Virus record (IMG/VR): IMGVR_UViG_2537561827_000016
DNA: 31,901 bases
Reading direction: 5' to 3' (one strand)
Source: a virus
Lineage: Duplodnaviria > Heunggongvirae > Uroviricota > Caudoviricetes
Part shown: positions 2,153 to 11,165 of the stretch, piece by piece
Layout of the letters: each line of letters begins with the position of its first letter
How positions within the stretch are numbered: the first letter of the stretch is position 1
Notes under the pieces: generated by a model
Told to the model about the DNA's origin: nothing
Databases searched by the model: none
The model's input: the letters and a program-made list of their open reading frames with translations, nothing else
Position numbers and translations under genes: made by a program

Positions 2153-2440
2153 ATGAGGGTACCATATATGGACGCTGAAAATTATGTGATTCAGTATCCG
2201 CTTGATGCGGTTCATGTGGATAAATTTGCTGATTTATTAGGGAAGCCAAAGACAGCCGTCAGTGAAATGGTGAAAGCAAATAAATTACCAATTATTGAAT
2301 TGCGTGATCCTTGCAAACCGAAGGCTCGTGCCGGTGAAAAATGGGTTTTCATTCCTGAGTTTAATCGCGCTGTACGTGAGGCGTTTTATAACCGACCGGT
2401 TGAACAGCGTGATGCATGGCTCTTGTGGATGGGGTTGTGA
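2153..2440 (+). CDS. cox: Cox-like excisionase / switch regulator
   Basis: Position and size (about 90 aa) match P2 Cox, with some similarity to it (LPIIELRDP, WLLWMGL end). An alternative start at ATG 2168 has better GAGGG RBS spacing. Confidence 0.75.
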   Translation: MRVPYMDAENYVIQYPLDAVHVDKFADLLGKPKTAVSEMVKANKLPIIELRDPCKPKARAGEKWVFIPEFNRAVREAFYNRPVEQRDAWLLWMGL

Positions 2441-2442
2441 TT

Positions 2443-2613
2443 ATGAATGAGCCGCGTTGTATTGCTCAGTTACTGCGTAACGAAAGCCCCAGGGCGATTG
2501 ACTTCACCATCACCCACGGGAAGGGGCGCAAGGGAATCATTATCCGCACCAAAAAACAGAGTCCGTTAAAGAAGGCTCTGACCTTTCTGAAAAGCCGGAG
2601 GGTATGGAAATGA
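2443..2613 (+). CDS. Small basic early protein (P2 orf78 position)
   Basis: 56-aa ORF from ATG 2443, between cox and B; Lys/Arg-rich. No recognised domain. Confidence 0.45.
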   Translation: MNEPRCIAQLLRNESPRAIDFTITHGKGRKGIIIRTKKQSPLKKALTFLKSRRVWK

Positions 2614-3110
2614 CAGTGATGACGCTTAATCTCGTTGAAAAACAGCCAGCAGCTATGCGCCGGATAATTGGTAAGCATCTTGCCGTCCCTCGCTGGCAGG
2701 ATACATGTGATTATTATAATCAGATGATGGAGCGCGAACGGTTAACGGTTTGCTTCCATGCGCAGTTAAAACAACGTCACGCAACGATGCGTTTTGAAGA
2801 AATGAACGACGTCGAACGTGAACGGCTGGTTTGTGCAATTGATGAACTGCGTGGGGCATTCTCAAAACGCCGTCAGGTCGGTGCAAGTGAGTATGCATAT
2901 ATTAGTTTTTTAACAGTCAGTCAGCGCCGTACTTTATTTATGCATGCCGGATTGACTGAAAAAGAATTCAACCAGCCATACTGGCGAATTAATGAAGAAT
3001 CATGTTACTGGCGTGATGCCTTATTCCGTGCATTACGTGAATTATTCAGCCTGTTTGAGTATGCACCGACAATTCTGACGTCGGTTAAACCAGAGCAATA
3101 TCTGCATTAA
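2604..3110 (+). CDS. B: Replication protein B-like (putative helicase loader)
   Basis: 168 aa, same position and size as P2 gpB; GGAGGG RBS upstream of ATG 2604. Identity inferred mainly from synteny. Confidence 0.6.
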   Translation: MEMTVMTLNLVEKQPAAMRRIIGKHLAVPRWQDTCDYYNQMMERERLTVCFHAQLKQRHATMRFEEMNDVERERLVCAIDELRGAFSKRRQVGASEYAYISFLTVSQRRTLFMHAGLTEKEFNQPYWRINEESCYWRDALFRALRELFSLFEYAPTILTSVKPEQYLH

Positions 3111-3173
3111 ATAATTAACCAGAGTTTTTAACGCACTTAATCGTGCGGGGCTTCTTTTTGCCTGGAGAAAGTC

Positions 3174-3398
3174 ATGCATACAGTTTCTGAAAATCAGTGC
3201 GGTAAATACGCATTACTGCTGCAACAGGCCAGAACCGAAGCACAGGCCGATGCAGCGACGCGCTTTTCTTCTCATCTTGACGCCATGATTCGCCACATCA
3301 CAAAGGCGGAGTTATCCCGCGTGGAGATAGTCGAGCTGCTCAGTCAGGAGTCGGAAAAATTTCACAATATCGGATTGTCTCGCGGGGAGGTGCTTTGA
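3174..3398 (+). CDS. Hypothetical early protein (P2 orf80 position)
   Basis: 74-aa ORF in the early rightward operon; end overlaps the next ORF start (ATGA). Confidence 0.5.
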
Positions 3399-3924: not shown

Positions 3925-4196
3925 GTATTCGTATTGAAATTGGCGAACGTTATGTCGTTACCAGTGACAGCTTTCAGTTTATTCTCCACGAGAGAAAGAG
4001 AGCGGAAAGCGGTAAAAACGCCGGTCAGGAATGGCTGGCAGTGGTTGGTTATTACCCGAAATTAAGCCAGCTCGTTTCCGGCCTGATGCATCACGATATT
4101 CTGACCGGAAGCGCAAAATCTTTTGCTGATTTAAACGCGCAGGTTGAGCAACTCAGCAAGCGTTGTTCAGAGGCTTTTGGCTCATATGGCCGTTAA
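3921..4196 (+). CDS. Hypothetical early protein (P2 orf83 position)
   Basis: 91-aa ORF immediately upstream of and overlapping the A gene start. Confidence 0.5.
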   Translation: MSIRIEIGERYVVTSDSFQFILHERKRAESGKNAGQEWLAVVGYYPKLSQLVSGLMHHDILTGSAKSFADLNAQVEQLSKRCSEAFGSYGR

Positions 4197-6462
4197 AGCC
4201 TCCGGGCGTTTTGTCCCTCCGTCAGTATTTGCCGCAGGCACCGGTAAGGCGTTTACCGGTGCTTATGCATGGAACGCGCCACGCGAGGCTGTCGGGCGCG
4301 AAAGACCCCTTACACGTGACGAGATGCGTCAGGTGCAGGGGGTTTTATCCACGATTAACCGCCTGCCTTACTTTTTGCGCTCGCTGTTTACTTCACGCTA
4401 TGACTACATCCGGCGCAATAAAAGCCCGGTGCACGGGTTTTATTTCCTCACATCCACTTTTCAGCGTCGTTTATGGCCGCGCATTGAGCGTGTGAATCAG
4501 CGCCATGAAATGAACACCGACGCGTCGTTACTGTTTCTGGCAGAGCGTGACCACTATGCGCGCCTGCCGGGAATGAATGACAAGGAGCTGAAAAAGTTTG
4601 TTGCCCGTATCTCATCGCAGCTTTTCATGATGTATGAGGAACTCAGCGATGCCTGGGTGGATGCGCATGGCGAAAAAGAATCGCTGTTTACGGATGAGGC
4701 GCAGGCTCACCTCTATGGTCATGTTGCTGGCGCTGCACGTGCTTTCAATATATCCCCGCTCTACTGGAAAAAATACCGTAAAGGGCAGATGACCACGAGG
4801 CAGGCATATTCTGCCATTGCCCGTCTGTTTAACGATGAGTGGTGGACTCATCAGCTTAAAGGCCAGCGTATGCGCTGGCATGAAGCGTTACTGATAGCTG
4901 TCGGGGAGGTCAATAAAGACCGTTCTCCTTATGCCAGTAAACACGCCATTCGTGATGTGCGTGCGCGCCGCCAGGCAAATCTGGAATTTCTTAAATCGTG
5001 TGACCTTGAAAACAGGGAAACCGGCGAGCGCATCGACCTTATCAGTAAGGTGATGGGCAGTATTTCTAATCCTGAAATTCGCCGGATGGAGCTGATGAAC
5101 ACCATTGCCGGTATTGAGCGTTACGCCGCCGCAGAGGGGGATGTGGGGATGTTTATCACGCTGACCGCGCCGTCAAAGTATCACCCGACTCGTCAGGTCA
5201 GAAAAGGCGAAAGTAAAACCGTTCAGCTTAATCACGGCTGGAACGATGAGGCATTTAATCCAAAGGATGCGCAGCGTTATCTCTGCCGCATCTGGAGCCT
5301 GATGCGCACGGCATTTAAGGATAATGATTTACAGGTCTACGGTTTGCGTGTCGTCGAGCCACACCACGACGGAACGCCGCACTGGCATATGATGCTTTTT
5401 TGTAATCCACGCCAGCGTAACCAGATTATCGAAATCATGCGTCGCTATGCGCTCAAAGAGGATGGTGACGAAAGAGGAGCCGCGCGAAACCGTTTTCAGG
5501 CAAAGCACCTTAACCGGGGCGGTGCTGCGGGATATATCGCGAAATACATTTCAAAAAATATCGACGGCTATGCACTGGATGGTCAGCTCGATAACGATAC
5601 CGGTAAGCCGCTTAAAGATACTGCCGCGGCTGTTACCGCATGGGCGTCAACGTGGCGCATCCCGCAATTTAAAACGGTTGGACTGCCGACAATGGGGGCT
5701 TACCGTGAACTACGCAAATTGCCTCGCGGCGTCAGTATTGCTGATGAGTTTGACGAACGCGTCGAGGCTGCTCGCGCTGCCGCAGACAGTGGTGATTTTG
5801 CGTTGTATATCAGCGCGCAGGGTGGGGCAAATGTCCCGCGCGATTGTCAGACTGTCAGGGTTGCCCGTAGCCCGTCGGATGACGTTAACGAGTACGAGGA
5901 AGAAGTCGAGAGAGTGGTCGGCATTTACGCGCCGCATCTCGGCGCGCGTCATATTCATATCACCAGAACGACGGACTGGCGCATTGTGCCGAAAGTTCCG
6001 GTCGTTGAGCCTTTGACTTTAAAAAGCGGCATCGCCGCGCCTCGGAGTCCTGTCAATAACTGTGGAAAGCTCACCGGTGGTGATACTTCGTTACCAGCCC
6101 CCACACCTTCTGAGCACGCCGCAGCAGTGCTTAATCTGGTTGATGACGGTGTCATCGAATGGAATGACCCGGAGGTCGTGAGGGCGCTCAGAGGTGCATT
6201 AAAACATGGCCTGAGAACACCAAATCGCCAGCAAAGAAACGGAAGCCCGTTAAAACCGCATGAAATGGCACCATCGGCCAGACTGACCCGGTCGGAACGA
6301 ATGCAAATTACCCGTATCCGCGTTGACCTTGCTCAGAACGGTATCAGGCCGCAGCGATGGGAGCTTGAGGCGCTGGCGCGTGGGGCAACCGTAAATTATG
6401 ACGGGAAAAAATTCACGTATCCGGTCGCTAATGAGTGGTCGGTTTTTTCAATTAAACAATAA
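4186..6462 (+). CDS. A: Replication initiation endonuclease A (rolling-circle nickase)
   Basis: About 758 aa from ATG 4186 (MAVKASGRF, the P2 gpA N-terminus as recalled). HWHMMLF HUH motif and a downstream tyrosine-containing region; very close to P2 A. The ORF track's upstream TTG start at 4144 is not preferred. Confidence 0.92.
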   Translation: MAVKASGRFVPPSVFAAGTGKAFTGAYAWNAPREAVGRERPLTRDEMRQVQGVLSTINRLPYFLRSLFTSRYDYIRRNKSPVHGFYFLTSTFQRRLWPRIERVNQRHEMNTDASLLFLAERDHYARLPGMNDKELKKFVARISSQLFMMYEELSDAWVDAHGEKESLFTDEAQAHLYGHVAGAARAFNISPLYWKKYRKGQMTTRQAYSAIARLFNDEWWTHQLKGQRMRWHEALLIAVGEVNKDRSPYASKHAIRDVRARRQANLEFLKSCDLENRETGERIDLISKVMGSISNPEIRRMELMNTIAGIERYAAAEGDVGMFITLTAPSKYHPTRQVRKGESKTVQLNHGWNDEAFNPKDAQRYLCRIWSLMRTAFKDNDLQVYGLRVVEPHHDGTPHWHMMLFCNPRQRNQIIEIMRRYALKEDGDERGAARNRFQAKHLNRGGAAGYIAKYISKNIDGYALDGQLDNDTGKPLKDTAAAVTAWASTWRIPQFKTVGLPTMGAYRELRKLPRGVSIADEFDERVEAARAAADSGDFALYISAQGGANVPRDCQTVRVARSPSDDVNEYEEEVERVVGIYAPHLGARHIHITRTTDWRIVPKVPVVEPLTLKSGIAAPRSPVNNCGKLTGGDTSLPAPTPSEHAAAVLNLVDDGVIEWNDPEVVRALRGALKHGLRTPNRQQRNGSPLKPHEMAPSARLTRSERMQITRIRVDLAQNGIRPQRWELEALARGATVNYDGKKFTYPVANEWSVFSIKQ

Positions 6463-6663
6463 TGACTACTACTGCAGTGTTGTGGGAATGTTATAGTGTT
6501 TGTGGAATTTTTCTATGAAAAACAATGAATTAATCTGTTTTTCATATTGAGCTAATTTTTTATGGCCACAGTTGTTAAAAAGTGAGAACATAATCTTGTT
6601 CAAAACCTGCTTCTATATACGGAGGCTTTCGCTATAATACGCGGTCGGTTTTAGGAGGGGATA

Positions 6664-7608
6664 ATGCCAACAGTAGTTTCACTTTTTTCTGGATGCGGTG
6701 GTTCCGATGCGGGGGTTTTGAGAGCCGGCTTTGATGTGCTTATGGCCAACGATATCTTGCCGTATGCGCGCGATGTTTATATTGCCAATCATCCAGAAAC
6801 TGATTACATATTAGGCAATATTGCTGATGTAACTACTTTTCCTAAATCTGATTTGCTGGTAGGTTGTTATCCATGTCAGGGATTCAGCCAGGGTGGTGCG
6901 CGTAAAGCCGATCGAAAAATTAATACTCTTTATTTAGAGTTTGCTAGAGCTTTAAACAATATAAAGCCTAAAGCTTTTATAGTAGAAAACGTGTCTGGTA
7001 TGGTTAGAAAAAATTTTGAGCATTTGTTATCTGACCAGATCAGGGTTTTTACTGAAGCAGGTTATACTGTTTCCGCAAAAGTTTTAAATGCGGCTGAATA
7101 TGGAGTAGCGCAGGAAAGAAAAAGAATATTTATCGTAGGAATCCGTAATGATTTCAAAGTTAAGTACGAGTTCCCTCAGCCAACTCATGGGCCAGCAACT
7201 GGCGTCAACTATGTTACTATTAAAGATGCTATAGGGCATTTACCTGAATGGCCAGAAGGGGAATTTTATGATATGGGATTCCATTGGTATTATATGTCTC
7301 GCAATCGTCGCCAGGATTGGGATCAAATTTCAAAGACAATAGTTGCTAATGCAAGGCATATGCCGTTGCATCCTGTCAGTCCTCCGATGGAGAAAGTAAG
7401 AACTGATGAATGGAGATTTGTTGAGGATCGGAGAGCTCGCAGATTCAGTTTTCGAGAGGCAGCACTATTACAAGGGTTTGAGGATCTAGTGTTTCCAGAA
7501 ACAAATGCTGCAAGTCTTGGCATGAAATACACGGTGGTTGGTAATGCAGTGCCTCCGCCGCTTTTTGAAGCTGTAACGAAGGCATTGCCAATAGAATTAT
7601 GGGATTGA
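6664..7608 (+). CDS. DNA (cytosine-5)-methyltransferase
   Basis: Canonical C5-MTase motifs in order: FSGCGG (I, AdoMet binding), PCQGFS (IV, catalytic Cys), ENV (VI), QERKRIF (VIII), REAALLQGF (IX) and GNAVPPPLF (X). AGGAGGGG RBS upstream; TATAAT at 6633-6638. Confidence 0.9.
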   Translation: MPTVVSLFSGCGGSDAGVLRAGFDVLMANDILPYARDVYIANHPETDYILGNIADVTTFPKSDLLVGCYPCQGFSQGGARKADRKINTLYLEFARALNNIKPKAFIVENVSGMVRKNFEHLLSDQIRVFTEAGYTVSAKVLNAAEYGVAQERKRIFIVGIRNDFKVKYEFPQPTHGPATGVNYVTIKDAIGHLPEWPEGEFYDMGFHWYYMSRNRRQDWDQISKTIVANARHMPLHPVSPPMEKVRTDEWRFVEDRRARRFSFREAALLQGFEDLVFPETNAASLGMKYTVVGNAVPPPLFEAVTKALPIELWD

Positions 7609-7615
7609 TAAGCTA

Positions 7616-8605
7616 TTAAGGCTCTGGATTTAATGTATAAAGCTCTTCCTCAAATTCGCGAAACCAATCAGAGGTAGTTATCGCTTCCCATTGGTTTGCC
7701 TTATCAAGTAGATATATGATTCTCAACCTATCTAATAATAATACCCCAGCGGTTGCGTGTGTGCTTACCCATTCGCCATTTGCTTCCCGATAGAAAACAG
7801 GCGTGAACATTGTTGATGGATGCTGGAACGCAATTTGGAAATAGGTGGTCAGTTTTAACACGTTAGCCTCTAATGTTTTGCTTGGCCACCCTGTTTCTTG
7901 TGCACCACATTGACCAAGAATTCCATAGTTGCTAGTTTGACCATCAGGAAATTCCACTGTAGCAATTAGGTCAAACCCGGCATCACCAGATGTGGGAGCT
8001 CTATTTATTTCCCTTGTGTTTAAACTACAAACTCCAAGATCTTTTCCTAAAGTTTGTAGAGCTGTCCGAAGATTTGTTCCATAATAATTTTGCCTATCAT
8101 CGGAGTTAGCATCAAAAATTCTTACGGTGCCATGTGCAGGTAAGAGAGAAATCATTGCTACTTTACATACTCTGGCAAAGCTCTTTGCCCAACGTTGTGC
8201 TGCTCCTTTAATCGACTTAAAGGATCTAAGTCTAGAGCAGCAAAGAAGAAAAACATATATTCGTTGTTGTTGGTTTAGATTTTCTTTAATAATTATCTCA
8301 TCACCTGAAATTATAAATGGATATATTTTTCCAAGAGCACTTTCTCTATATTCGAGTTGTGTCCAAACATCTTCGAGTTGCTCTTCAAAACGATCATTTC
8401 TCTCAGCGTCTCCATTAATTTCTTCTTCAGAATTACATTCTTCATCAATTTCTTCAACGCTTGTTATGCCGAATTTTCTTACTGAATCTAAATCATTTTT
8501 ATGTAGTGAGTTACGTCCGGTATAATTAATTACCGTGAGTAACTCGGCTAAATCTGCAAACAAATGAGGAGAGTTGGGATGCATAACTCCTACTTCAAAA
8601 GTCAT
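7616..8605 (-). CDS. Hypothetical protein; candidate effector (possible restriction endonuclease) convergent with the MTase
   Basis: About 329-aa ORF ending 7 bp from the MTase stop, tail-to-tail; overlaps the upstream ParB-like gene by about 11 nt. Acidic cluster EEIDEECNSEEEINGDAERNDRFEEQLED. No family recognised by eye. Start chosen at ATG 8605 after the GAGG RBS; 8608 is an alternative. Confidence 0.6.
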   Translation of the reverse strand: MTFEVGVMHPNSPHLFADLAELLTVINYTGRNSLHKNDLDSVRKFGITSVEEIDEECNSEEEINGDAERNDRFEEQLEDVWTQLEYRESALGKIYPFIISGDEIIIKENLNQQQRIYVFLLCCSRLRSFKSIKGAAQRWAKSFARVCKVAMISLLPAHGTVRIFDANSDDRQNYYGTNLRTALQTLGKDLGVCSLNTREINRAPTSGDAGFDLIATVEFPDGQTSNYGILGQCGAQETGWPSKTLEANVLKLTTYFQIAFQHPSTMFTPVFYREANGEWVSTHATAGVLLLDRLRIIYLLDKANQWEAITTSDWFREFEEELYTLNPEP

Positions 8606-9716
8606 CATCACCTCTGCTATTTTTCTCTGCTATTTCAGAACCTATAAGCTTAATATGTTTATTGATTCTTCGTGCTACTTCATGGGCCTGTCTATCATAC
8701 TCTACCGTGGCAACCATGCCTGCTGCATCTATCAAAGCTGCTTCAACTTGATAAAGTAACTGGAGAAAGTCCTTAGTAATATCAGATGTCAATTGATAGG
8801 CAACTGCGAGTGGAGCCCCCATTCGGAATTGCTCCAATGCCTTAGGGCTACTTACAACAGCAGCTAGTTCTCTTAAATTACGTGATTCTCCTACACGAGT
8901 TTTTTTATCCTCGCCTTTTTTATATAACCATTCAGTTAGTTCTTTTATTTCTTTGTTCTTTAAACTCTTAGAATTGATGATAGGATGACTTGGTATTGTG
9001 TCTCCATCGTCTTCGATTGAAACTCCGACAAACTGGCCTAACCGCTCATCAGCAAGTGCTGTTGATAATACTGAAAATTTAATCGTTTCTTCATCTAGCT
9101 TTTCAATACCATAAAAATCATTTTTTTTAATGATTTCATACACCGCTAAAGCGTCTAGGTTACGCTTGATATGATCCCTACGACTGCCAATAGCTCTGGC
9201 AACCTCATAGTAGCGTAGCATTGGATCCAGATTTGCATTGGTATAATCAAAAAGCTGTTTAATATATCGAGCTTTTGATAAGGGTTCCCATTGTTTGACA
9301 CCAGTAATATGTCTGAAACCAAGGTACGGAAGAATCTCTTCTCTTGTTTGGCGCTCAATGACAGGAACACGATCGACCGTATGTTTTGCATTTGATGCAA
9401 TTTCTCGTAGTCGAGCACTTGGATTTTCACATAGTGTCGGATCGCGGAATAATTTGACCGCGGATAGGCGACGGTTTCCTTCAACTACAATGTACTTCCC
9501 CGGCGCTCCACTATCAGGAATGACAATCAATGGTTCTCCAGGGAAAAAACCATTTTCCGCAATAGCACTCATTAAGTCTTCGATAGATGTTGAGGTTGCT
9601 ATGTAGTTAATCATTCCCAATTGGTCACGAGACACGCCTTCAGGAAGTCTTGGGTTTTCTGTGTCAAGTTCCAAATCATCTAGCGGAACATAAAGTATTT
9701 CTGAATCAGCAATCAT
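8595..9716 (-). CDS. ParB/Srx-like nuclease-domain protein
   Basis: N-terminal region ILYVPLDDLELDTENPRLP ... PLIVIPDSGAPGKYIVVEGNRRLSAVKL resembles the ParB N-terminal fold (PNPxQPR-like box followed by a GxRRxxA box). C-terminal roughly 230 aa unassigned. First ATG at 9716 with GGAG RBS; the ORF track's TTG start at 9755 is not preferred. Confidence 0.7.
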   Translation of the reverse strand: MIADSEILYVPLDDLELDTENPRLPEGVSRDQLGMINYIATSTSIEDLMSAIAENGFFPGEPLIVIPDSGAPGKYIVVEGNRRLSAVKLFRDPTLCENPSARLREIASNAKHTVDRVPVIERQTREEILPYLGFRHITGVKQWEPLSKARYIKQLFDYTNANLDPMLRYYEVARAIGSRRDHIKRNLDALAVYEIIKKNDFYGIEKLDEETIKFSVLSTALADERLGQFVGVSIEDDGDTIPSHPIINSKSLKNKEIKELTEWLYKKGEDKKTRVGESRNLRELAAVVSSPKALEQFRMGAPLAVAYQLTSDITKDFLQLLYQVEAALIDAAGMVATVEYDRQAHEVARRINKHIKLIGSEIAEKNSRGDDDF

Positions 9717-9942
9717 CTGGATCTCCGTTGAACATGTCCACGAGAAGGAGCACAAAGTTATTTCATAACATGCAATATACTCATTCTGTAGCCATAAATG
9801 AATTATTCATGATGTAAGATTCGCGTTGATGTGCGTGAATTCGCAAGTAATTATACAGCAAGGTTTGATTGGGTATCGTCAGCACCAGTGCGGTTCCAAC
9901 GTACTCATGCAACTGCATTAAAACCGCCCCATGAAGCGGGCG

Positions 9943-9961
9943 GGCGAGGCGGGGAAAGCAC
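9943..9961. other. cos site (19-nt cohesive end, P2-type)
   Basis: GGCGAGGCGGGGAAAGCAC matches the P2 cohesive-end sequence as I recall it, in the expected position just beyond the portal gene Q. Confidence 0.7.
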
Positions 9962-10101
9962 TGCGCGCTGGCGGTGGTGCTGATTTTATTTTTTCAGCGT
10001 CTGAGCGCGTCTTGATGGCGTTTAGATTGTGCGCCGGGGCGTTGGTGTGTCTACGGGGTGTTTTGTGCGGTGGTGAGCGTGTGAGGGCGTGATGACGGGG
10101 T

Positions 10102-10125
10102 GTAAAAAAGCCGCCCGCAGGCGGC
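10102..10125 (-). terminator. Rho-independent terminator after Q (end of the P-Q operon)
   Basis: Hairpin GCCGCC-CGCA-GGCGGC preceded on the plus strand by AAAAAA, which is a T-run after the hairpin on the minus strand, directly downstream of the Q stop. Confidence 0.6.
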
Positions 10126-10130
10126 GATGT

Positions 10131-11165
10131 TCAGCCGTTGTCAGTGTCCAGTGAGTAGTTTTTAAAGCGGATGACCTCCTGGCCGAGCCAGCCGTTTATT
10201 TCCCGAATCCTGTCCTGTAACGGGATAAGTTCATTGCGGACAAAGACCTTTGCCACTTTCTCAATATCACCCAGCGACCCGACGTTCTCCGGCTTGCCGC
10301 CCATCAACTGAAAGGGGATGCGGTGCGCGTCCAGCAGGTCAGCGGCGCTGGCTTTTTTGATATTAAAAAAATCGTCCTTCGTTGCCACTTCACTGAGCGG
10401 GATAATTTTAATGCCGTCGGCTTTCCCCTGCGGGGCATAGAGAAACAGATTTTTAAAGTTGTTGCGGCCTTTCGACTTGACCATGTTTTCGCGAAGCATT
10501 TCGATATCGTTGCGATCCTGCACGGCATCAGTGACGTACATGATGTATCCGGCATGTGCGCCATTTTCGTAATACTTGCGGCGGAACAGCGTGGCCGACT
10601 CATTCAGCCAGGCAGAGTTAAGGGCGCTGAGATATTCCGGCAGGCCGTACAGCTCCTGATTAATATCCGGCTCCAGCAGGTGAAACACGGAGCCGGGCGC
10701 GAAGGCTGTCGGCTCGTTGAAGGACGGCACCCACCAGTAAACATCCTCTTCCACACCACGGCGGGGATATTTTGCCGGTGAGGTTTCCAGCCTGATAACT
10801 TTACCGGTGGTGCTGTAACGCTTTTCCAGAAATGCATTACCAAATACCAGAAAATCCAGCACAAAGCGGCTGAAATCCTGCTGGGAAAGCCATGGATGCG
10901 GGATAAATGTCGAGGCCAGAATATTACGTTTGACGTAAATCGGTGAGCTGTGATGCACGGCAGCACGCAGGCTTTTCGCCAGACCGGTAAAGCTGACCGG
11001 TGGCTCATACCATCTGCCGTTACTGATGCACTCGACGTAATCCAGAATGTCACGCCGGTCGAGTACCGGCACCGGCTCACCAAAGGTGAATGCCTCCATT
11101 TTCGGGGCGCTGGCGGTCATTTTTTTTGCCGCAGGTTGCGGTGTTTTCCCTTTTTTCTTGCTCAT
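10131..11165 (-). CDS. Q: Portal protein
   Basis: 344 aa, same length as P2 gpQ; sequence matches the P2 portal as recalled. Confidence 0.93.
   Translation of the reverse strand: MSKKKGKTPQPAAKKMTASAPKMEAFTFGEPVPVLDRRDILDYVECISNGRWYEPPVSFTGLAKSLRAAVHHSSPIYVKRNILASTFIPHPWLSQQDFSRFVLDFLVFGNAFLEKRYSTTGKVIRLETSPAKYPRRGVEEDVYWWVPSFNEPTAFAPGSVFHLLEPDINQELYGLPEYLSALNSAWLNESATLFRRKYYENGAHAGYIMYVTDAVQDRNDIEMLRENMVKSKGRNNFKNLFLYAPQGKADGIKIIPLSEVATKDDFFNIKKASAADLLDAHRIPFQLMGGKPENVGSLGDIEKVAKVFVRNELIPLQDRIREINGWLGQEVIRFKNYSLDTDNG

Follow-up and report, generated by a model that had tools for sequence, protein, structure and literature searches.

In a stretch of viral DNA of 31,901 nucleotides (nt) (IMG/VR virus record IMGVR_UViG_2537561827_000016, Caudoviricetes; the whole stretch is here called the window), one gene that sits among the cargo of a P2-like phage plausibly encodes the nuclease effector of a restriction-modification (R-M)-like system not characterised so far, as judged from its sequence and from a structure model. 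The gene, termed gene X below, is on the minus strand at 7616..8605, and its uncharacterised product of 329 amino acids (aa) is a candidate nuclease effector with a predicted winged-helix N-terminus and a C-terminus resembling the MspJI/Mrr-type PD-(D/E)xK enzymes. The reading that we favour, with modest confidence, is that X is the nuclease subunit of a three-gene R-M-like anti-phage cassette, the other members being a ParB-like nucleoside triphosphatase (NTPase) and a C5 cytosine DNA methyltransferase, and that the cassette is carried as cargo by a P2-like phage. A nuclease fold for X makes what was an unexplained three-gene locus a testable restriction-like system.

A predicted nuclease-like fold in gene X

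That the open reading frame (ORF) is real is evident from its relatives, whose number is far beyond chance: a word-indexed search gave 235 homologues, those of Burkholderia, Methylococcales and other taxa being 50-55% identical, and an exhaustive profile search gave 1,294 clusters at 50% identity. The best 150 of the 1,294 clusters are mostly full-length proteins of ~300-365 aa; some are shorter fragments and none is a larger fusion protein. The family ranges from Proteobacteria to a Bacteroidota-like contig. The first-pass annotation, made by eye from the letters, had taken X for a candidate effector of the fast-evolving kind that shows no recognisable motif. Fast evolution is not borne out, as the Escherichia coli copy and those of Burkholderia and Methylococcales are still 50-55% identical. 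X has no credible match in Pfam, NCBIfam or PADLOC, and its only PHROGs match, phrog_3984, is of 'unknown function'. For the study of conservation a set of 95 diverse sequences, 22-48% identical to X, was used, and a Pfam scan of these returned zero families. Searches of the PDB with phmmer and with a profile of close homologues gave noise only, and a 61-aa fragment of MspJI, used as the query in a homologue search, yielded no candidates.

What, then, points to a nuclease? Structure prediction followed by a Foldseek search was the check that the first-pass annotation had itself proposed for its candidate effector, and the outcome supports it. The AlphaFold2 model of X (predicted local distance difference test 88.2, predicted template-modelling score 0.89) has an N-terminal winged helix and a C-terminal alpha/beta core that resembles those of restriction endonucleases, and with this model Foldseek placed MspJI first (E=7.9e-3, probability 0.98) and BsaWI second, all other targets being no better than E=2. 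A hidden Markov model (HMM) of the 95 diverse members had MspJI as its top match among 177,635 PDB sequences (E=0.031), and three of the 95 match the PADLOC model mREase_II, which stands for a methyl-directed restriction endonuclease (REase) (1.3e-4). In the profile alignment 'sGDgGlDlV...fGQCac' of the 95-member profile falls on 'SSGDGGVD334F...GQ355AK357C' of MspJI. Four partly independent lines, drawn from sequence and from the model, thus assign the C-terminal half of X to the PD-(D/E)xK superfamily and there to its MspJI/Mrr-type branch. With approximate boundaries, the predicted restriction-endonuclease-like core comprises residues ~156-329 (7619..8140, minus strand), and the helical/winged-helix N-terminal region comprises residues ~1-155 (8141..8605, minus strand), the latter with an acidic insert at 51-81 and with D18, E21 and R87 invariant.

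The putative active site

The segment of interest is at 7877..7984 on the minus strand and reads D208-A-G-F-D212 ... G-Q232-C-G234-A-Q-E-T-G-W240-P-S-K243 (329-aa numbering here and below; its codons were checked against the sequence). In the profile alignment the MspJI equivalents are D334 for D212, Q355 for Q232 and K357 for G234; these three we take to be the catalytic residues of MspJI, and their numbers agree with counting along the printed alignment. In the PD-(D/E)xK superfamily the catalytic Asp of GDxGxD opens the second core strand, and D212, the putative metal-binding Asp of X, immediately precedes a strand of the model, 213-218. Invariant in the 95 members are D18, E21, R87, Y117, F143, D212, Q232, W240, R293 and R295, while D208, G210, D221, C233, K243, P269, R273, W279 and D292 are at least 90% conserved.

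The position that corresponds to K357 of MspJI is Gly in the window protein, and across the family of 95 it is Ala in 75, Thr in eight, Gly in six and Lys in only four. K243, which sits 9-10 residues beyond the canonical Lys position, is kept in 93 of the 95, and D212, Q232 and W240 in every one. An alignment-free scan of 233 representatives gave a similar division, with 227 that have W-x-x-K and no canonical Lys, five with Q-[CS]-K and one with an insertion. All five Q-[CS]-K members are without K at W+3, but they have Lys at W+1 or W+2, and they are located in the same operon of ParB-like gene, X and methylase gene, with or without Vsr. These five probably form a single clade, to be counted as one evolutionary event. 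Relocation of catalytic residues has precedents in the PD-(D/E)xK superfamily, and from the pattern of conservation X probably has an MspJI-type site in which the catalytic Lys has been relocated to K243.

Conservation of the three-gene arrangement

With the X profile 22 genome loci were found, 17 of them informative for methylase adjacency. In every locus with upstream sequence a ParB-like gene is immediately upstream of X, the two frames overlapping or nearly abutting, and hmmsearch identified the upstream proteins as ParB-like in L032, L034, L035, L037 and L038 (E 1e-67 to 1e-112). A homologous C5-methylase gene adjoins the pair in 12 of the 17 informative loci, usually in convergent orientation and in two of them upstream and co-directional. 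It is adjacent in all phage and metagenomic triads examined, where it is convergent, downstream and co-directional, or upstream. At the window locus the putative nuclease gene adjoins the methylase gene, convergently and at a distance of 7 nt, as is expected of a Type II R-M system.

Distant copies of the arrangement are instructive. In phage Wphi (L032), where the genes are gp98-gp96-mth, identity to the window proteins is 25% for X, 34% for the ParB-like protein and 76% for the methylase; from this contrast either the methylase has been swapped independently or the ParB-like/X pair has been diversifying much faster. The identities of the ParB-like protein and of X to their window copies correlate tightly (Pearson 0.95, n=21, a value inflated by shared ancestry), and methylase identity, which serves as an internal contrast, does not (rho 0.45, not significant). 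The triad is also present in Pseudomonas phage D14A, L037 and L040. A Vsr gene is part of the neighbourhood in several cases. Its position is 3174-3644 in L035, where the order is ParB-like-X-methylase-Vsr, and 6969-7415 of L041 in the Bacteroidota-like contig (L041/42), where the order is the same. In L038 Vsr (713-1129) comes before methylase-ParB-like-X and is separated from the methylase gene by an HNH_2 gene. Yersinia phage L-413C (L039) has only a 3'-truncated ParB-like gene at 207-1199, 62% identical over residues 9-303 and abutting orf91/gpA, with both X and the methylase gone. By its sequence, this locus is what a deletion has left of such a cassette.

The surroundings of the chromosomal copies are varied. 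The L011 pair lies in a Type I R-M island, after AAA ATPase and Type I HsdS genes, and the pairs of L021 and L024 are flanked by housekeeping genes (CvfB/PrmC and NadA/GuaA), an unannotated 302-aa ORF at 7092-8000 being directly downstream in L021. One chromosomal copy is amid HipA, VapBC/PIN and AbiEii genes; the cassette is thus also found in non-phage chromosomal islands.

Proposed mechanism and its alternatives

In the proposed mechanism the methylase would mark host and prophage DNA as self, and that 5-methylcytosine really is made on the chromosome is implied by the adjoining Vsr genes. The ParB-like protein would bind DNA as the partner of X, in the manner of an NTP-gated switch or clamp, and the complex of the two would cut incoming DNA without the mark, with D212, Q232 and K243 as its catalytic core and K243 standing in for the missing Lys. 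A bolder and only tentative proposition, which we consider likelier to be wrong than right, is that the triad represents an unrecognised class of NTP-dependent R-M system, in which it is a ParB/KorB-type clamp, and not a helicase-type motor or a GTPase ring, that senses unmethylated DNA and licenses an MspJI-like nuclease with a migrated Lys. The defence system PD-lambda-5 and the cassette 'DUF262 + DNA_methylase + HEPN', both considered below, would then be sister architectures, each assembled from a sensor of ParB fold together with an effector and a methylase that are both exchangeable.

Several points count against X being the nuclease of an R-M-like cassette. Formally it is without the (D/E/Q)-x-K element that PD-(D/E)xK enzymes have on the third core strand, G234 being where the Lys is expected. 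The migration of that Lys is no more than probable, the Q-x-K members being likely one clade. In five loci (L011, L016, L021, L022 and L024) the ParB-like/X pair is present with no homologous C5-methylase gene adjacent; the genomes of this kind are those of Crenothrix sp. D3 (MBQZ01), Methylococcaceae (JAIFMS01, JBAXNR01 and JBAXTQ01) and Methylovulum (JAQTNZ01).

Could X instead be a catalytically dead nuclease fold, kept as a DNA-binding or specificity adaptor for a ParB-like protein that is itself the enzyme, whether as NTPase or as 'ParB-like nuclease'? We think it unlikely. Pseudo-enzymes usually lose the residues that here are invariant (D212 and Q232) or nearly so (K243, D208, D292, R293 and R295) at 22-48% identity; a clade with the full canonical motif occurs in the identical gene context; and in the ParB-like protein, which shows just an NTPase fold, a helix-turn-helix (HTH) and a helical tail, neither a nuclease motif nor a conserved HEPN motif can be recognised. 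Quite unlikely too, in our view, is that the ParB-like protein and X make up a modification-dependent, Type IV-like module comparable to GmrS/GmrD or MspJI, with the methylase a separate entity that, for instance, shields the prophage from other restriction or sets a tolerated mark. The closest nuclease relatives, MspJI and AspBHI, would suit such a module, as would the match to the PADLOC methyl-directed REase model and the ParB-fold NTPase plus nuclease design of GmrSD, BrxU and SspE. Some of the pairs, moreover, have no methylase beside them, and one of these is inside a Type I R-M island, where Type IV enzymes are often embedded. Against this, a C5-methylase has been retained beside the pair across distant taxa despite shuffling of gene order, often along with Vsr, which speaks for a functional dependence between them; the N-terminus of X is helical/winged-helix and not a beta-rich reader domain of SRA type; and Pfam DUF262 and DUF1524 were not detected, at E<=1, in either X or the ParB-like protein.

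Is the cassette rather a toxin or abortive-infection (Abi) device, in which X is a latent nuclease, kept in restraint either by methylation status or by its ParB-like partner until infection frees it to degrade host and phage DNA alike? The related PD-lambda-5 was called a 'compacted RM+Abi system' by Vassallo et al. (PMC9519451), the translational coupling of two proteins recalls toxin-antitoxin logic, and there is the chromosomal copy amid HipA, VapBC/PIN and AbiEii. It is nevertheless improbable, as nothing points to a trigger, the ParB-like partner, a conserved NTPase/HTH protein of large size, is unlike a small labile antitoxin, and a constitutive methylase together with Vsr better suits self-marking. 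Least probable of all, and very much so, is a role outside defence, as a phage partition, replication or regulatory module made up of a ParB-like DNA binder and an accessory protein, next to an orphan methylase. The ParB-like protein does resemble KorB/Spo0J, HTH included. However, the locus is a low-GC swap-in at a hotspot whose other occupants are old, tin and many defence systems; the cassette is present in non-phage chromosomal islands; and it is missing from most P2-like prophages (of 2,177 E. coli genomes in which the flanks match, 48 have it). No ParA-like ORF was found between gpA and the portal gene, and with the locus being a defence hotspot, a partition or plasmid-like function was rejected.

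Reading frame and overlap with the ParB-like gene

The stop codon of gene X is at 7616-7618 and its start is most plausibly the ATG at 8605, which gives 329 aa in agreement with the annotation of Yersinia phage HQ103. ATG 8608 (330 aa) and GTG 8611 (331 aa) are the other possible starts. The minus-strand sequence 8617-8595 is GCAGAGGTGATGATGACTTTTGA, in which a Shine-Dalgarno-like GAGG (8611-8614) is 5 nt from ATG 8605 and just 2 nt from ATG 8608; only ATG 8605 is well spaced from it. The first-pass annotation had paired a length of 329 aa with a start at 8608: the length stands, and it is ATG 8605 that fits it, whereas ATG 8608 would add one residue. It had also described the start as overlapping the stop of the upstream gene. 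The ParB-like ORF ends ...GAT GAT GAC TTT TGA, its stop being at 8597-8595, and therefore it overlaps gene X by 11-14 nt (8595..8608, minus strand); the overlap is there, and it is not a simple ATGA junction. A 14-nt overlap of the same two genes has also been called in Burkholderia, Salmonella and Methyloversatilis homologues, whose neighbours are alike.

The overlap 8595-8608 is dual-coding, as the codons for D-D-D-F-stop of the ParB-like protein contain the ATG ATG ACT TTT of X. Therefore the acidic ...DDDxF tail of the one and the conserved M-x-F start of the other constrain each other, and conservation of either may in part be a by-product of that of its counterpart. The acidic tail is also reminiscent of the C-terminal tip of single-stranded DNA-binding protein (SSB).

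At the other end, the stop of gene X and that of the methylase gene are 7 nt apart (7609..7615) and the genes are convergent, so that the abutting 3' ends that had been noted earlier are as described. The terminator scan found no terminator-like site in 7609-7615; there is no room for one, and therefore the transcripts of X and the methylase gene must overlap. Two compositional remarks of the first-pass annotation also proved accurate. Its acidic cluster is the run of residues 51-81 (VEEIDEECNSEEEINGDAERNDRFEEQLED), and its Cys-containing region can be specified as cysteines at residues 58, 122-123, 148, 194 and 233, of which C123 is invariant in a ten-sequence alignment of X and C233 is at least 90% conserved in the 95 diverse members.

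The partner genes

The ParB-like gene is at 8595..9716 on the minus strand and encodes 373 aa from ATG 9716, the alternative TTG start at 9755 probably giving too long an ORF. Its product combines the NTPase fold of ParB/Srx with an HTH of ParB/KorB type and has, at the C-terminus, a long helical hairpin followed by the conserved acidic ...D-D-D-x-F tail. In its box-II-like motif, E79-G-N-R-R-L-x-A86, residues E79-R83 are invariant, and L84 and A86 are at least 90% conserved. The PADLOC model PD-Lambda-5_A matches residues 22-295 (E=4.9e-28; profile positions 7-277 of 440). A HEPN domain was considered for the protein and rejected, as its sole Rx4H (RRINKH) has a His without conservation, and the model has a helical hairpin in that region. 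Two terminator-like hairpins, 9924-9943 and 10110-10127 on the minus strand, separate the portal gene from the ParB-like gene, and a promoter belonging to the cassette itself is probable within 9717-9923. Terminator-like sites in 6400-10200 number six against 2.8 expected, and the promoter scan, with nine promoter-like sites found against 9.3 expected from shuffles, is uninformative.

The C5 cytosine DNA methyltransferase gene, at 6664..7608 on the plus strand and convergent with gene X, encodes an M.HaeIII-like protein of 314 aa. It matches Pfam PF00145 DNA_methylase (E=5.5e-65) and TIGR00675 dcm (1.4e-56), and against M.HaeIII of the PDB (1dct, E=1.4e-48) its residues 4-308 align on 3-320, with the target-recognition region included. 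Its catalytic Cys is that of the PCQ motif, in GCYPCQG. From the likeness to M.HaeIII GGCC might be guessed to be its site. The RefSeq record of HQ103 (L033, NC_070908) has no coding sequence (CDS) at 2338-3279, where tblastn reveals an intact methylase, 100% identical over 314 aa; the missing CDS is an annotation gap.

The phage setting

The window is from a P2-like phage of the kind represented by Yersinia phage HQ103 and E. coli prophages. Identity to HQ103 is 100% for X and 99.7% for the ParB-like protein, and the 3.8-kb region is 99.9% identical to E. coli prophages, in which the RefSeq order is replication endonuclease, methyltransferase, hypothetical, ParB N-terminal domain protein and portal. 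The whole cassette is present in 48 of 5,426 complete E. coli genomes. As cargo it occupies 6463..10130 in the P2 defence hotspot, bordered by replication gene A (4144-6462, plus strand) and portal gene Q (10131-11165, minus strand), and its GC content of 34-44% is quite a departure from the 51-59% of the backbone.

That gpA-portal site of P2 is a hotspot for old, tin and many defence systems (PMC9519451, PMC9122126). Sampled rows of the P2-locus table of Rousset et al. 2022 (PMC9122126, Table S5A) read 'DNA_methylase + hypothetical + ParBc', ~99 mentions of ParB occur in the part of the table that was covered, and 'ParB' is absent from supplement file 7 of that paper, which has the entries for cloned unknown systems. 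The same table (Rousset et al. 2022, PMC9122126, Table S5A), as far as sampled, also has a 'DUF262 + DNA_methylase + HEPN' cassette for the P2 hotspot, and such rows display a parallel design of ParB-fold protein, C5-methylase and a different effector. A modular theme is suggested, of a ParB-fold protein with an exchangeable effector and a methylase. The cassette with X is then a common occupant of the P2 hotspot whose middle gene is still 'hypothetical' in every library searched, and a literature search found no paper characterising X or its gene triad. Current defence-finding tools would report merely an incomplete PD-lambda-5, and the family of ~1,300 X clusters is without a Pfam model.

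Comparison with known systems

With ParB/KorB CTP-gated clamps the ParB-like protein shares a ParB N-domain, in which a GxxRxxA-like motif is intact, and an HTH of ParB/KorB type; unlike them it has no ParA and no known parS, and its context is defensive. ParB-fold proteins are able to bind CTP, ATP or GTP (PMC12704722), and the reading favoured here would give the ParB NTPase fold a further role, in immunity.

Classical Type II R-M systems are like the present one in having a nuclease-methylase pair that is convergent or co-directional, here with a methylase of M.HaeIII type and, in several loci, Vsr. The difference is that in every case X has a ParB-fold NTPase/HTH protein coupled to it, and that some such pairs have no adjacent methylase. 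As to the D...Q-x-K branch, GDxGxD...GQ of X aligns residue for residue with D334/Q355 of MspJI. MspJI, AspBHI and Mrr-type enzymes are modification-dependent and are not known to have a companion methylase; X, in contrast, adjoins a conserved companion C5-methylase, the equivalent of K357 is Gly or Ala in most members of its family, and it is devoid of an SRA-like reader of modified bases, such as the N-terminal modified-cytosine reader of the MspJI family.

A ParB-fold NTPase combined with a nuclease is the design of GmrSD, BrxU and SspE, and in Ssp it is joined to a self-mark on DNA (PMC13251355). The resemblance of GmrS/GmrD, BrxU and SspE to the present pair is that a ParB/Srx-fold NTPase works with a DNA nuclease in defence. 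Their DUF262 and HNH-like DUF1524, however, were not detected here, and their mark is phosphorothioate, or their target is hypermodified DNA.

The nearest counterpart among validated systems is PD-lambda-5, a two-gene E. coli prophage defence described as 'ParB/HEPN + methyltransferase' (Vassallo et al. 2022, PMC9519451). The ParB-like protein matches its subunit A over the N-terminal ~280 residues (E=4.9e-28), and both systems are prophage-borne, have a DNA methylase alongside a protein of ParB fold and are of compact R-M-like appearance. In PD-lambda-5, though, subunit A, of ~500 aa, gives a weak HEPN signal in its C-terminal part, whereas the window protein has no conserved Rx4-6H; subunit B is Dam-like (MethyltransfD12) and the genes are two, whereas here the enzyme is of C5 type (PF00145) and the genes are three; and the separate third protein, the PD-(D/E)xK-like X, matches no PD-lambda-5 model. 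For that validated but unexplained system, the assignment of X as a putative nuclease is a mechanistic lead.

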